Below are positions 3,758-9,664 of a DNA stretch of 64,000 bases, piece after piece (position 1 is the first letter of the stretch; each line of letters starts with the position of its first letter). Below the pieces are notes generated by a model. It searched no databases. It was not told where the DNA came from and was given only the letters and a program-made list of their open reading frames with translations. The stretch is taken from the NCBI RefSeq assembly GCF_055900595.2, contig NZ_CM148325.1; one strand, given 5' to 3'. The translations under genes and the position numbers were made by a program.

Positions 3758-5107
3758 TTATTTTTCCTGAAGACCGAGTTTTTTCTCCAGATAGTGGATG
3801 TTAGTGCCACCATGCTGGAAGTTCTCGTCATTCATGATGCGGATCTGCAGATCAACGTTGGTTTTGATACCGTCGATGATCAGCTCCTGCAGCGCATTCT
3901 TCATGCGGGCAATCGCCACGTCACGGTTTTCACCGTAGCAAATCAGCTTACCGATCATTGAGTCATAGTACGGCGGTACGGTGTAGCCCGCGTAGATATG
4001 AGACTCCCAACGCACGCCAAAACCGCCAGGTGCATGGAAACGGGTGATTTTGCCCGGGCTTGGCAGGAAGGTGTTAGGATCCTCGGCGTTAATACGGCAT
4101 TCCACCGCATGGCCGCGAACGTGAACTTCTTCTTGCTTGATCGACAGCGGCTGACCAGCAGCAATACGCAGTTGTTCTTTGATCAGGTCAACACCGGTGA
4201 TCATTTCAGTAACCGGGTGTTCTACCTGAATACGGGTGTTCATTTCGATGAAATAGAACTCGCCGTTTTCGAACAGAAACTCGAAAGTACCTGCACCGCG
4301 ATAGCCGATATCAACACACGCTTTAGCACAACGTTCACCGATGTAGCGACGCAGTTCCGGGGTAATGCCCGGTGCTGGCGCTTCTTCGACCACTTTCTGG
4401 TGACGACGCTGCATAGAGCAGTCACGTTCCGCCAGATAGATAGCGTTGCCCTGACCGTCCGCCAGTACCTGGATCTCGACGTGGCGAGGATTTTCCAGGT
4501 ATTTCTCCATGTAAACCATGTCGTTATTGAAAGCGGCTTTCGCTTCCGCACGGGTCATGGAGATGGATTGCGCCAGTTCAGCGTCGCCGCGTACTACACG
4601 CATACCACGACCGCCGCCGCCGCCGGAGGCTTTGATAATCACCGGGTAACCAATGCGTTTTGCAATGGCGCGGTTTTTATCCATATCGTCGCCCAGCGGG
4701 CCGTCAGAACCTGGTACGCAAGGAACGCCCGCTTTTTTCATCGCCGCGATTGCTGATACTTTATCGCCCATCAGGCGAATGGTTTCGGCTTTCGGGCCGA
4801 TGAAGATAAAGCCGGAGCGTTCAACCTGCTCGGCAAAATTGGCGTTCTCGGAGAGGAAGCCGTAACCCGGATGGATTGCTACTGCGCCGGTGATTTCAGC
4901 GGCGCTGATGATTGCCGGGATGTTCAGATAACTTTTTACTGACGGAGCAGGGCCGATACAGACCGTTTCGTCTGCCAGTAATACGTGTTTTAGATCGCGA
5001 TCCGCACTGGAGTGCACAGCGACAGTCTTGATGCCCAGTTCTTTACAGGCACGAAGAATACGCAATGCAATCTCGCCGCGGTTGGCAATAACAATTTTAT
5101 CCAGCAT
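3758..5107 (-). CDS. accC: Biotin carboxylase subunit of acetyl-CoA carboxylase
   Basis: Translation from [33 protein letters not shown]... gives 449 aa, matching E. coli AccC. The six-frame ORF extends 13 codons further upstream, which I treat as an artefact. Confidence 0.97.
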
Positions 5108-5117
5108 GTTCGCCTCG

Positions 5118-5588
5118 TTACTCGATGACGACCAGCGGCTCGTCAAATTCTACCGGTTGTCCACTTTCGACCAGAATTGCTTTCACGGTACCGGATTTGT
5201 CCGCTTCGATCTGGTTCATCATTTTCATGGCTTCAACGATGCACAGGGTATCGCCCACGTTGACTTTCTGACCCACTTCGATGAACGCTTTTGCGTCCGG
5301 GCTTGGGGTGCGGTAGAAAGTACCAACCATCGGGGAACGTACGATGTGACCACTGATTTCCGCTGCTGCTGGCGCTTCCATGGAAGGAACGGTCGCCGGA
5401 GCGGCTGCGTTAGATTGAGCTGGCTGCTGCATCATTGGTGCAGCGTAAGCTTGTTGCATCACAGGGAAACTTGCGGCAGGAGCTGCACGGCTGATGCGTA
5501 CTGACTCTTCGCCTTCGGAGATTTCCAGTTCGGAGATGCCTGATTCTTCAACCAGCTCGATCAGTTTTTTAATCTTACGAATATCCAT
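5118..5588 (-). CDS. accB: Biotin carboxyl carrier protein
   Basis: 156 aa starting [28 protein letters not shown]..., with the biotinylation motif [10 protein letters not shown]. It sits immediately upstream of accC. Confidence 0.97.
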
Positions 5589-6363
5589 GAGTGGGTTCCG
5601 TACTCTTTGTTTAGTGTGATTGTGACAGGCGTTTCACCGCCGTCTGTAAAGCGTATGCCCCGACAGCTGTATGCATAGCGATAAATTCCAGCAGGCCGGG
5701 ACGCCGGTCTATTTTGCCCCAGAGTGTCAATGTTTAGACTTGACGGACATTGTGCAGCGATCTGCTGCTATCCTCCGGCAAAAAACAAAATATACCTTCG
5801 TTGCGCCAATGTCACCTTTTCCGCAGCGCAAAAACTGCGTCAGGGAGGACGAGGTCGCACATTATAACGATTTCGTAGCAATTGGCAGCTAAATACTGGT
5901 CTTATCAGGGAAGATAATCAACAGCTAACATGTAAATAACCTTCAACACCGTGTAATTTGCAACAAGCCGCACAATTCACGAAATTAGCGCTATCGTCGA
6001 CGGAACTTCTTATAACGTAAGGCTAAAAGCTGTAAAGCCAGCTCTGCGAAGATGAGGGGCTGCAATGAGATGATCCTCACAGACCACAAATAATGTAGGG
6101 TTGCCAGGATCGCGACAAGATAGACGACATTACGCAGCGGTTGCTGGGGATTACTCAATTTTCACGGCATCGTCCGGATAGACGTCAATGCTAAAGCACG
6201 CAAAATCAACAAACTGACAATGCTCAGCATCAAATAGTTTTGAGTGGTTAATTTATAATCTAATAAAATCAGATTATTCACCCCTGGGATCAGAGTTAAG
6301 GTACAGATTAAGCGTAGCGTCACCCAGGCAAAGCGCCTTAAACCTAACAGACGACGGGACGTA

Positions 6364-6561
6364 TCAATAATGACTATTTAGTGGAGTATCAAGGGTGTTT
6401 TCCACCGTTTGGTGACCCGTATCAATGCGCATCAATTTATGGTCAGTCGAAATCATGACTTTCCAGTTTGGATTATGTTGTACAACTTTCTGACCAAGGT
6501 GTTCGACGAAAGCTGTCCGGCTAACCGCTTTTCCCGTTAATCGATGGAATAATGATTTCAA
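6364..6561 (-). CDS. Small hypothetical protein (65 aa)
   Basis: ORF with a GAGAGGG Shine-Dalgarno about 7 nt before the ATG, 36 bp downstream of acuI in AT-rich sequence. I do not recognise the protein. Confidence 0.35.
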   Translation of the reverse strand: MKSLFHRLTGKAVSRTAFVEHLGQKVVQHNPNWKVMISTDHKLMRIDTGHQTVENTLDTPLNSHY

Positions 6562-6597
6562 AATGAGTTCCCTCTCTTATTAATCCTTGCTAAATGG

Positions 6598-7572
6598 TTA
6601 ATTAATCTTCACCAGCGTGCGACCCTGGATCTGGTTATTAATGATGGCTTCGGCAAACTTTGGTGCTTCTGCCAGAGATATCTCTTTTGCTGCCTGGGTA
6701 TAGAATGATTCCGGTAAATCGGCGACCAGTCGCTGCCAGGCTTGTGCGCGGCGTGCTGGTGGCGTCATCACTGAATCCACCCCTTGTAAACGGACATTAC
6801 GCAGAATAAATGGCATGACCGTTGTTGGCAGAGTAAAACCACCCGCCAGACCACAAGCTGCCACGCAGCCTCCGTAATTCATTTGCGCCAGCACTTTCGC
6901 CAGCACTTTGTCGCCAACGGTGTCAATTGCCCCAGCCCAGAGTTGTTTTTCCAGAGGACGGGATTCGGCAAACTCATCGCGAGGGAGAATACGGCTGGCA
7001 CCTAAACTTTTCAGATATTCATGGGTACTTTCGCGACCGGAAACGGCAACGACCTGATAACCCAACTTATGCAGCAGCGCCACGGCGGTACTGCCGACGC
7101 CACCACTGGCACCCGTTACGACAATCTCGCCGTCCTGCGGGCGAACACCGGCATCTTCCAGCGCCATCACACACAGCATGGCGGTAAAACCGGCAGTACC
7201 GATAATCATTGCTTTACGCGCGTCCAGCCCTTGCGGCATGGCAACCAGCCAGTCACCTTTCACTCGCGCCTGCTCCGCCAGCCCACCCCAGTGGTTTTCA
7301 CCAACGCCCCAGCCAGTGAGTAATACGTCCTGACCGGCATGAAAACGCGGATCTTCGCTGGTGCGTACAGTTCCGGCAAAATCGATCCCAGGAATCATCG
7401 GAAAATTACGGATGATTTTTCCCTTACCGGTAATTGCCAGCGCATCTTTGTAGTTCAGGCTCGACCAGTGAACATCAACCGTGACATCGCCCTCCGGCAG
7501 GCGACTTTCGTCCAGAGTCTGTACCGATGCGAGAGTTTTGCCGTCCTGCTGTTCTAAAAGTAACGCCTGCAT
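6598..7572 (-). CDS. acuI: Acrylyl-CoA reductase AcuI (YhdH), MDR-family oxidoreductase
   Basis: 324 aa, MQALLLEQQDGKTLASVQTLDESRLPEGDV..., with a GASGGVG nucleotide-binding motif. Confidence 0.93.
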   Translation of the reverse strand: MQALLLEQQDGKTLASVQTLDESRLPEGDVTVDVHWSSLNYKDALAITGKGKIIRNFPMIPGIDFAGTVRTSEDPRFHAGQDVLLTGWGVGENHWGGLAEQARVKGDWLVAMPQGLDARKAMIIGTAGFTAMLCVMALEDAGVRPQDGEIVVTGASGGVGSTAVALLHKLGYQVVAVSGRESTHEYLKSLGASRILPRDEFAESRPLEKQLWAGAIDTVGDKVLAKVLAQMNYGGCVAACGLAGGFTLPTTVMPFILRNVRLQGVDSVMTPPARRAQAWQRLVADLPESFYTQAAKEISLAEAPKFAEAIINNQIQGRTLVKIN

Positions 7573-7723: not shown

Positions 7724-9664
7724 ATGAGATTAACGACGAAATTTTCGGCCTTTGTTACGCTGCTCACCGGGTTAACAATTTTTGTGACTTTGTTGGGCTG
7801 TTCGCTAAGTTTCTACAACGCCATTCAGTATAAGTTTAGTCATCGCGTTCAGGCGGTGGCGACGGCGATTGATACCCACCTTGTGTCGAATGACTTCAGC
7901 GCATTAAGGCCACAAATTACCGAATTAATGATGTCAGCAGATATCGTTCGTGTAGACCTGCTACATGGTGATAAACAGGTTTATACCCTCGCCAGAAATG
8001 GTAGTTATCGTCCGGTTGGCACCAGCGATCTGTTTCGCGAACTGAGCGTTCCGTTGATAAAGCATCCGGGGATGTCGCTGCGTCTGGTTTATCAGGATCC
8101 GATGGGCAACTATTTCCATTCGTTGATGACCACCGCGCCGCTCACGGGGGCGATTGGCTTTATCATTCTTATGCTCTTCCTGGCGGTACGCTGGTTACAA
8201 CGGCAACTTGCCGGGCAAGAATTGCTGGAAACCCGGGCTACTCGTATCTTAAACGGTGAGCGTGGCTCTAATGTGTTGGGAACCATCTATGAATGGCCGC
8301 CCAGAACCAGCAGTGCGCTGGATACGCTGCTTCGTGAAATTCAGAACGCACGCGAACAACACAGCCGTCTTGATACGCTGATCCGCTCTTATGCCGCCCA
8401 GGACATGAAAACCGGCCTCAATAACCGACTCTTCTTCGATAATCAGTTGGCAACGTTACTGGAAGATCAGGAGAAAGTAGGTACCCACGGGATCGTGATG
8501 ATGATTCGTCTACCGGATTTCAATATGTTGAGCGATACCTGGGGGCACAGCCAGGTTGAAGAACAGTTCTTCACTCTGACGAATCTGCTGTCGACATTTA
8601 TGATGCGCTACCCTGGCGCACTGCTGGCGCGTTACCACCGCAGTGATTTTGCTGCGCTGTTGCCGCACCGGACGTTAAAAGAGGCTGAGAGCATAGCCAG
8701 TCAGTTAATCAAAGCCGTCGATACCTTGCCGAACAATAAAATGCTCGATCGCGACGATATGATCCACATTGGTATCTGTGCCTGGCGTAGTGGTCAGGAT
8801 ACCGAGCAGGTAATGGAACATGCAGAGTCTGCCACGCGTAATGCGGGATTGCAGGGCGGCAATAGCTGGGCTATTTACGATGACTCGTTGCCTGAAAAAG
8901 GACGCGGTAATGTTCGCTGGCGTACGCTTATCGAGCAAATGCTCAGTCGCGGCGGCCCGCGCCTTTATCAAAAACCGGCGGTTACTCGCGAAGGTCAGGT
9001 TCATCATCGAGAACTCATGTGCCGCATCTTCGATGGTAATGAAGAGGTTAGCTCGGCGGAGTATATGCCGATGGTCTTGCAGTTTGGCTTATCGGAAGAG
9101 TATGACCGCCTGCAAATCAGCCGTCTGATTCCACTATTGCGTTACTGGCCGGAGGAAAATCTGGCGATTCAGGTTACCGTTGAGTCGCTGATTCGCCCGC
9201 GTTTTCAGCGTTGGCTGCGCGATACGTTAATGCAATGTGAAAGATCGCAACGAAAACGCATAATTATTGAACTTGCAGAGGCCGATGTAGGTCAACATAT
9301 CAGTCGTTTACAACCTGTTATTCGTTTAGTGAATGCTTTAGGGGTACGGGTAGCCGTCAACCAGGCTGGTTTGACGCTGGTAAGCACCAGTTGGATCAAA
9401 GAACTTAATGTTGAGTTACTCAAGCTCCATCCGGGGCTGGTCAGAAACATTGAGAAGCGAACGGAGAATCAGCTGCTGGTTCAAAGCCTGGTGGAAGCCT
9501 GCTCCGGGACCAGCACCCAGGTTTACGCCACCGGCGTGCGTTCGCGAAGCGAGTGGCAGACCCTGATTCAGCGCGGTGTTACAGGTGGGCAAGGGGATTT
9601 TTTCGCGTCCTCACAGCCACTTGATACTAACGTGAAAAAATATTCACAAAGATACTCGGTTTAA
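7724..9664 (+). CDS. csrD: CsrD, regulator of CsrB/CsrC sRNA decay (degenerate GGDEF-EAL protein)
   Basis: 646 aa with two N-terminal transmembrane segments. Length and position (divergent from acuI, upstream of mreB) match CsrD. Confidence 0.93.
   Translation: MRLTTKFSAFVTLLTGLTIFVTLLGCSLSFYNAIQYKFSHRVQAVATAIDTHLVSNDFSALRPQITELMMSADIVRVDLLHGDKQVYTLARNGSYRPVGTSDLFRELSVPLIKHPGMSLRLVYQDPMGNYFHSLMTTAPLTGAIGFIILMLFLAVRWLQRQLAGQELLETRATRILNGERGSNVLGTIYEWPPRTSSALDTLLREIQNAREQHSRLDTLIRSYAAQDMKTGLNNRLFFDNQLATLLEDQEKVGTHGIVMMIRLPDFNMLSDTWGHSQVEEQFFTLTNLLSTFMMRYPGALLARYHRSDFAALLPHRTLKEAESIASQLIKAVDTLPNNKMLDRDDMIHIGICAWRSGQDTEQVMEHAESATRNAGLQGGNSWAIYDDSLPEKGRGNVRWRTLIEQMLSRGGPRLYQKPAVTREGQVHHRELMCRIFDGNEEVSSAEYMPMVLQFGLSEEYDRLQISRLIPLLRYWPEENLAIQVTVESLIRPRFQRWLRDTLMQCERSQRKRIIIELAEADVGQHISRLQPVIRLVNALGVRVAVNQAGLTLVSTSWIKELNVELLKLHPGLVRNIEKRTENQLLVQSLVEACSGTSTQVYATGVRSRSEWQTLIQRGVTGGQGDFFASSQPLDTNVKKYSQRYSV

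Follow-up and report, generated by a model that had tools for sequence, protein, structure and literature searches.

A short open reading frame downstream of acuI is a rare and slightly extended allele of the yrdF pseudogene

Introduction

In the methionine sulfoxide reductase MsrPQ, MsrQ is the subunit that binds heme. The functional msrPQ genes of Escherichia coli lie beside hiuH and hprRS, away from the locus described here. A decayed paralogue of msrQ/yedZ, the pseudogene yrdE (b4646, 3404638–3405031), is annotated in K-12 MG1655, together with a short pseudogene, yrdF (b4697, NC_000913.3 3404495–3404637), which begins at a TTG codon 36 nt past the stop codon of acuI/yhdH. Both yrdF and yrdE were termed pseudogenes in a 2020 J. 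Bacteriol. paper (PMC7648144).

A comparable gene order is found in Citrobacter and Pseudescherichia-like genomes, which read mreB-csrD-acuI-msrP-msrQ-accB-accC-yhdT-panF-prmA. Their flanking genes, and a near-invariant promoter block upstream of accB, match those of the 64,000-nucleotide stretch of DNA analysed here (the window). In these genomes msrP and msrQ are intact, as is aroQ on the Pseudescherichia-like contig L014, and there is no yrdF, whereas in the window all of these genes are deleted or decayed. The decayed second msrQ of E. coli sits where the Citrobacter and Pseudescherichia-like genomes keep their sole visible msrPQ.

The spacer between acuI and accB in the window had been singled out from the sequence as an AT-rich region holding an unrecognised 65-aa open reading frame (ORF) behind a strong Shine–Dalgarno motif, and had been read as possibly a genuine small protein, possibly spurious. 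Here we compare this spacer with K-12 and with other E. coli and related genomes. The ORF is the already known yrdF pseudogene, in a rare and slightly longer allele.

Results

The acuI–accB spacer contains a 65-aa ORF

The spacer lies within an E. coli-type gene order (Table 1) and was present in 5,425 of 5,426 complete E. coli genomes. Its measured length of 1009 bp agrees with the separation of about 1 kb noted earlier. The claim of AT richness held in a weaker form: the GC content was 44.7% (39–44% over positions 6100–6600), compared with 51.3% for the whole window and 50–58% for the flanking genes, so that the spacer is moderately AT-rich. The ORF and its ribosome-binding site were both found where the original prediction had placed them, although the distance of 36 nt from the acuI stop codon belongs to the TTG start codon and not, as had been written, to the Shine–Dalgarno motif.

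Table 1. Positions of genes, remnants and sequence signals at the acuI–accB spacer in the window, and of comparison sequences on other contigs
Feature	Sequence	Positions	Strand	Remarks
accC	Window	3758–5106	−	
accB	Window	5118–5588	−	Start at 5588
acuI–accB spacer	Window	5589–6597		
accBC promoter and leader of about 265 nt (ancestral msrQ–accB intergenic region)	Window	5589–5990	−	Assigned by conservation and synteny
aroQ remnant, C-terminal 15 codons and stop	Window	5611–5658	−	13 of 15 residues match the AroQ C terminus
aroQ remnant, start-codon region	Window	5727–5750	−	From comparison with L014
Core accBC promoter block, 66 nt	Window	5854–5919	−	Predicted −35-like CTGCCA, 5883–5888; predicted −10 TATAAT, 5861–5866
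yrdE', msrQ/yedZ paralogue remnant, from about codon 66 to the stop	Window	5991–6387	−	TAG stop 5991–5993; in-frame TGA 6162–6164
65-aa ORF	Window	6364–6561	−	TTG start 6559–6561
Seven foreign codons (TPLNSHY) and TGA stop	Window	6364–6387	−	Chimeric 3' end of the 65-aa ORF
Direct repeats TTGATAC, 7 bp (coding strand)	Window	6386–6392, 6419–6425	−	33 bp from repeat to repeat deleted in K-12-type alleles
yrdF' stump, TTG and codons 1–58 of the ancestral 276-aa DUF1444-like gene	Window	6388–6561	−	From homology, tblastn and K-12 annotation
Shine–Dalgarno motif GAGAGGG	Window	6570–6576	−	8 nt upstream of TTG; ribosome-binding site inherited from the 276-aa ancestor
acuI (yhdH)	Window	6598–7572	−	Gene upstream of the stump; TAA stop 6598–6600
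csrD	Window	7724–9664	+	Beyond acuI
Full-length yrdF or homologue	L002	2366–3196	−	
Full-length yrdF or homologue	L008	6001–6816		
Full-length yrdF or homologue	L012	1005–1835		
Full-length yrdF or homologue	L010	3898–4731		
Further spacer variants (23AR0998, HS-02, MINF_1D)	L006; L017; L021	3803–4500; 2244–2669; 300–560		
Intact aroQ, Pseudescherichia-like genome	L014	5846–6298		

The length of the ORF is within what chance would give, as other ORFs of 73, 55 and 53 aa occur in the same 1 kb. It nevertheless stands above chance because BLASTP aligned it to the N terminus of a real 276-aa gene. Residues 1–58 were identical at 53 of 58 positions (91%; E=1e-36) to the intact protein of E. coli XPF_3. 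Beyond codon 58 the similarity stopped entirely, in the alignment and in BLASTP, and tblastn placed amino acids 1–58 of the parent on the stump interval; 58 of the 276 residues are present and codons 59–276 are gone. The bases under the remaining codons, TPLNSHY, extend an MsrQ-like translation, IVIIDTSRRLLGL, when read in another frame. The motif GAGAGGGAACTCATTTTGA at the Shine–Dalgarno site was identical before the intact gene in XPF_3, in E. albertii and on the Logan contig L012; the signals in front of the ORF look convincing because they are the parent gene's own translation start.

The ORF is very probably a pseudogene remnant, consisting of the first 58 codons of a 276-aa yrdF that once lay between acuI and msrP. 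Both readings offered earlier, that of a genuine small protein and that of a spurious ORF, give way to a 5' stump of a truncated gene that keeps its native Shine–Dalgarno motif and start codon. Nor is the ORF unrecognised, since K-12 RefSeq carries the yrdF pseudogene from the same TTG.

Consistent with orthology, the stump and K-12 yrdF occupy the same locus, share the Shine–Dalgarno motif as well as the start codon, and are collinear and 94.5% identical apart from one 33-bp indel. Their first 47 codons are common, with three amino-acid differences. When the window was aligned with K-12, N96 and XPF_3, its allele proved to retain 33 bp (11 codons, GHQTVENTLD...) lost from K-12 yrdF between the TTGATAC repeats, and the ORF is therefore 65 aa long rather than the 54 aa of K-12. 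The 65-aa peptide had no match in Pfam or NCBIfam, and two neighbouring ORF fragments had none in Pfam. PGAP labels the 65-aa form a hypothetical protein, and the exact peptide is present in public databases under that name.

The parent is an intact gene under purifying selection

At the same site, downstream of acuI and with the same Shine–Dalgarno motif and TTG, E. coli XPF_3 has an 831-nt gene that encodes a protein of 276 aa. Across 5,426 complete E. coli genomes, the body of yrdF occupied this locus in 669 (~12%). An intact yrdF is also present in the E. albertii type strain, and an orthologue with 78% identity lies downstream of acuI on L012. The intact E. coli proteins (for example, WP_121835273.1 and WP_000838295.1) share position and translation signals with the stump, and are labelled "DUF1444 domain-containing" or "hypothetical". 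In comparison with E. albertii the dN/dS of intact yrdF was 0.11, and with the 78% orthologue it was 0.12; these values indicate purifying selection and hence a real gene. We considered whether the 276-aa form might be a recent fusion and not the ancestral state, but E. albertii and L012 contradict this idea.

Family assignment of the parent fell short of the thresholds. It scored 16.9 bits against DUF1444/UPF0354 (PF07285; cut-off 23.8) and 22 bits against NCBIfam PRK13668 (cut-off 221), although the alignment spans residues 29–270. A PDB sequence search with the parent returned nothing meaningful (best E=0.21), and PADLOC gave no match for the protein. Very few homologues were found among 5.8 billion proteins, making the parent a near-orphan. 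A scan of GTDB representative genomes with peptide patterns recovered E. albertii alone; distant orthologues such as that on L012 differ at every pattern. An AlphaFold2 model of the parent, built from a seven-sequence alignment, was too poor to use (mean pLDDT 53.7, pTM 0.35). A homologue with 62% identity to yrdF was seen on a plasmid-like contig, together with genes for KfrA (KfrA_N) and Aca2.

The adjoining DNA is a remnant of msrQ

Downstream of the stump, the translation of yrdE' was 61% identical to amino acids 77–195 of K-12 MsrQ (119 aa, E=1e-36), and tblastn agreed. Its best database matches were MsrQ proteins that carry PF01794 (Ferric_reduct). The reading frame lacks about 65–75 N-terminal codons and is not a complete, uninterrupted coding sequence; with these codons gone and a TGA in frame, yrdE' is a pseudogene. 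PGAP likewise calls the interval a "cytochrome b family / YedZ" pseudogene. It is the same remnant as K-12 yrdE, although the window copy stays in one frame with one TGA, whereas the K-12 and CMZE027 copies have extra 1-nt indels. In a comparison that included L009 (1984–2619), yrdE' shared about 60% identity with the MsrQ of E. coli and likewise with that of Citrobacter.

Independent deletions produced several alleles

On L012 the gene order is acuI-yrdF-msrP. E. coli genomes with an intact yrdF, and E. albertii, retain about 40 decayed 5' codons of msrP (KLTEADFATKSAFLL...), which are fused to msrQ at about codon 101. Taken together with the Citrobacter and Pseudescherichia-like orders, these leftovers and the order on L012 indicate that the ancestral Escherichia arrangement was acuI-yrdF-msrP-msrQ-accB.

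Three main alleles were distinguished at this site. Allele I, that of the 669 genomes with the yrdF body, combines intact yrdF with a deletion from about codon 40 of msrP to about codon 101 of msrQ. Allele II, which is that of the window, has a deletion from codon 58 of yrdF to about codon 66 of msrQ and encodes 65 aa; it was found in 5 of the 5,426 genomes, including N96 and RMDEC465. The K-12 type, allele III, is allele II with the additional 33-bp deletion, encodes 54 aa and occurs in roughly 4,750 genomes. The idea that a single deletion turned the intact-yrdF allele into the 65-aa allele was rejected, as the window retains msrQ codons ~66–100, which allele I lacks. Alleles I and II each keep sequence that is missing in the other and therefore go back to independent deletions from a fuller ancestor. 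The sequence comparisons show directly the homology, the junctions of the deletions, the series of alleles and the ancestral order of the genes.

A deletion from codon 58 of yrdF to about codon 66 of the neighbouring msrQ took out the remainder of yrdF, the whole of msrP and the beginning of msrQ. Cut short in this way, the yrdF frame now reads seven codons of msrQ-derived DNA out of frame and stops. Small deletions that came later, of 33 bp in the K-12 type and of 31 nt in MINF_1D, fit neutral decay, as do the relaxed substitution patterns.

Rarer variants were also found. In MINF_1D, the 31-nt deletion differs from that of the K-12 type, shifts the frame and changes the tail, giving an ORF of 86 aa. 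HS-02 carries a full-length yrdF with a frameshift, which leaves an ORF of 55 aa. In 23AR0998, an IS1 element (IS1A) is inserted between yrdF and the msrQ remnant. Disruption of the frame in close relatives, which the original prediction had named as counting against it, was thus seen in part: the 3' ends vary, giving 54, 65 or 86 aa with differing tails.

The accBC promoter and leader are strongly conserved

The accB-proximal part of the spacer had been read earlier as the accB promoter and leader, and this reading was borne out. A promoter scan predicted CTGCCA-N16-TATAAT, with 10 of 12 consensus matches, between positions 5888 and 5861, and in each of five E. coli strains set against the window the 399–402 nt upstream of accB agreed with it at 99.5–100% identity. 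The adjoining pseudogene DNA differed from the window by ~10–11% in the three K-12-type strains. High conservation runs from the stop codon of the msrQ remnant (5991) to accB, and only 4 of the 66 positions of the promoter block vary among Escherichia, E. albertii, Citrobacter and the Pseudescherichia-like genome.

Between the same promoter and accB, the Pseudescherichia-like genome has an intact aroQ, which encodes a type II 3-dehydroquinase. Along with the two aroQ remnants in the window (Table 1), this gene makes the unusually long accBC leader of E. coli appear to be an internally deleted aroQ. The aroQ remnant is unannotated in K-12, and no relevant paper on a remnant of this kind turned up in the literature library searched. 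The Rfam family Ysr190 matched the accB promoter block, and not the ORF, below threshold (25 bits against a gathering score of 66). This match suggests that the Yersinia "sRNA" Ysr190 may be a transcript of the aroQ/accB promoter and leader.

Related genera have acuI-msrP-msrQ-(aroQ)-accB at this position, and for this reason we read the whole spacer as the remains of yrdF, msrP, msrQ and aroQ together with the strongly conserved accBC promoter and leader.

Constraint on the stump appears relaxed

In codons 1–47 of eight stump-bearing strains, there were 10 nonsynonymous and 3 synonymous distinct changes (pN/pS 0.58), compared with a pN/pS of 0.15–0.18 for the same codons in intact genes. The contrast between stump and intact genes gave a Fisher p of 0.13 with E. 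coli and E. albertii, and of 0.045 when L012 was added, in tests that involve few substitutions and non-independent pairs. Constraint on the stump thus appears relaxed relative to the intact gene, on small counts. Between the window and K-12, the stump differed by 5.5%, the msrQ remnant by 11.2%, which is close to the neutral rate, the synonymous sites of acuI by 8.7% (pS 0.087) and the 399 nt upstream of accB by 0%. Because the divergence of the stump is below that of the msrQ wreck and of the acuI synonymous sites, the first 47 codons, or else the DNA or RNA, may still be under some constraint.

A terminator scan predicted no terminator-like site on the minus strand from acuI to accB, including the interval between acuI and the stump. 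Transcripts of acuI therefore probably read into the stump, so that the 65-aa peptide may be made, and nothing suggests that it has a function.

Alternative explanations for the ORF

One alternative is that the stump persists as a genuine gene for a small protein, with a product of 54–65 aa that is translated from the retained Shine–Dalgarno motif and TTG, has a function of its own and consists of an N-terminal helix and a three-strand beta element. We consider this unlikely. The first 47 codons are open in all 10 stump alleles examined, behind the same motif and start codon; the 5' 165 nt of the stump, including both signals, are kept in 5,425 of 5,426 genomes; the stump is less diverged than the neighbouring pseudogene; and the scan predicted no terminator on the way from acuI into the ORF. 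In the poor AlphaFold2 model of the parent, the N-terminal 90 residues also come out best (pLDDT 65–76). However, neither length nor frame is conserved: the tails of the 54-, 65- and 86-aa forms are unrelated, and the MINF_1D deletion shifts the frame. The substitution pattern in the shared codons appears relaxed, the exact 65-aa form is confined to 5 of the 5,426 complete genomes, and PGAP called the 54-aa form in none of the K-12-type genomes examined. Text-searchable supplements of ribosome-profiling and N-terminomics studies held no yrdF entry and no coordinate 3404495, which is a weak negative, and the curators of K-12 class the stump as a pseudogene. A related possibility is that the stump is translated, given that its signals and first 47 codons are near-universal in E. 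coli and less diverged than the msrQ wreck, and that read-through from acuI yields a co-opted peptide of 54–86 aa or that translation affects the fate of the acuI mRNA. To us, this seems very unlikely.

The near-universal presence of the 5' stump DNA in E. coli, and its somewhat lower divergence than the adjacent wreck, could also reflect a non-coding role, for example, that of an acuI 3' UTR or of an element for stability or termination; the ORF would then be incidental. Such a role is highly improbable: Rfam gave no match within 5996–6597, no terminator-like hairpin was predicted on the minus strand, and the region tolerates deletions of 31–33 nt and, nearby, an IS1 insertion. Finally, a chance ORF behind a chance Shine–Dalgarno-like motif in AT-rich non-coding DNA would fit the ORFs of 53–73 aa that arise elsewhere in the spacer and the absence of any Pfam or NCBIfam match for the peptide. 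The E value of 1e-36 to the N terminus of the conserved 276-aa protein, whose gene shares genomic position, Shine–Dalgarno motif and start codon with the ORF, leaves this reading with a negligible probability; homology and synteny refute a random ORF. A remnant of yrdF is the reading we retain.

Discussion

The ORF should carry the label of a yrdF pseudogene fragment rather than that of a new small protein. The case carries a caution for the reading of bacterial intergenic regions, in that a strong Shine–Dalgarno motif before a short orphan ORF can be the inheritance of a dead gene. If the stump were translated and co-opted after all, it would be a small protein born from a pseudogene remnant.

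The putative deletion of aroQ suggests why accBC has an unusually long and highly conserved leader. More broadly, this single intergenic kilobase records how up to four genes, yrdF, msrP, msrQ and aroQ, were lost through several independent deletions, which still segregate as alleles in E. coli; as such, the locus is of modest value for the study of E. coli genome evolution.
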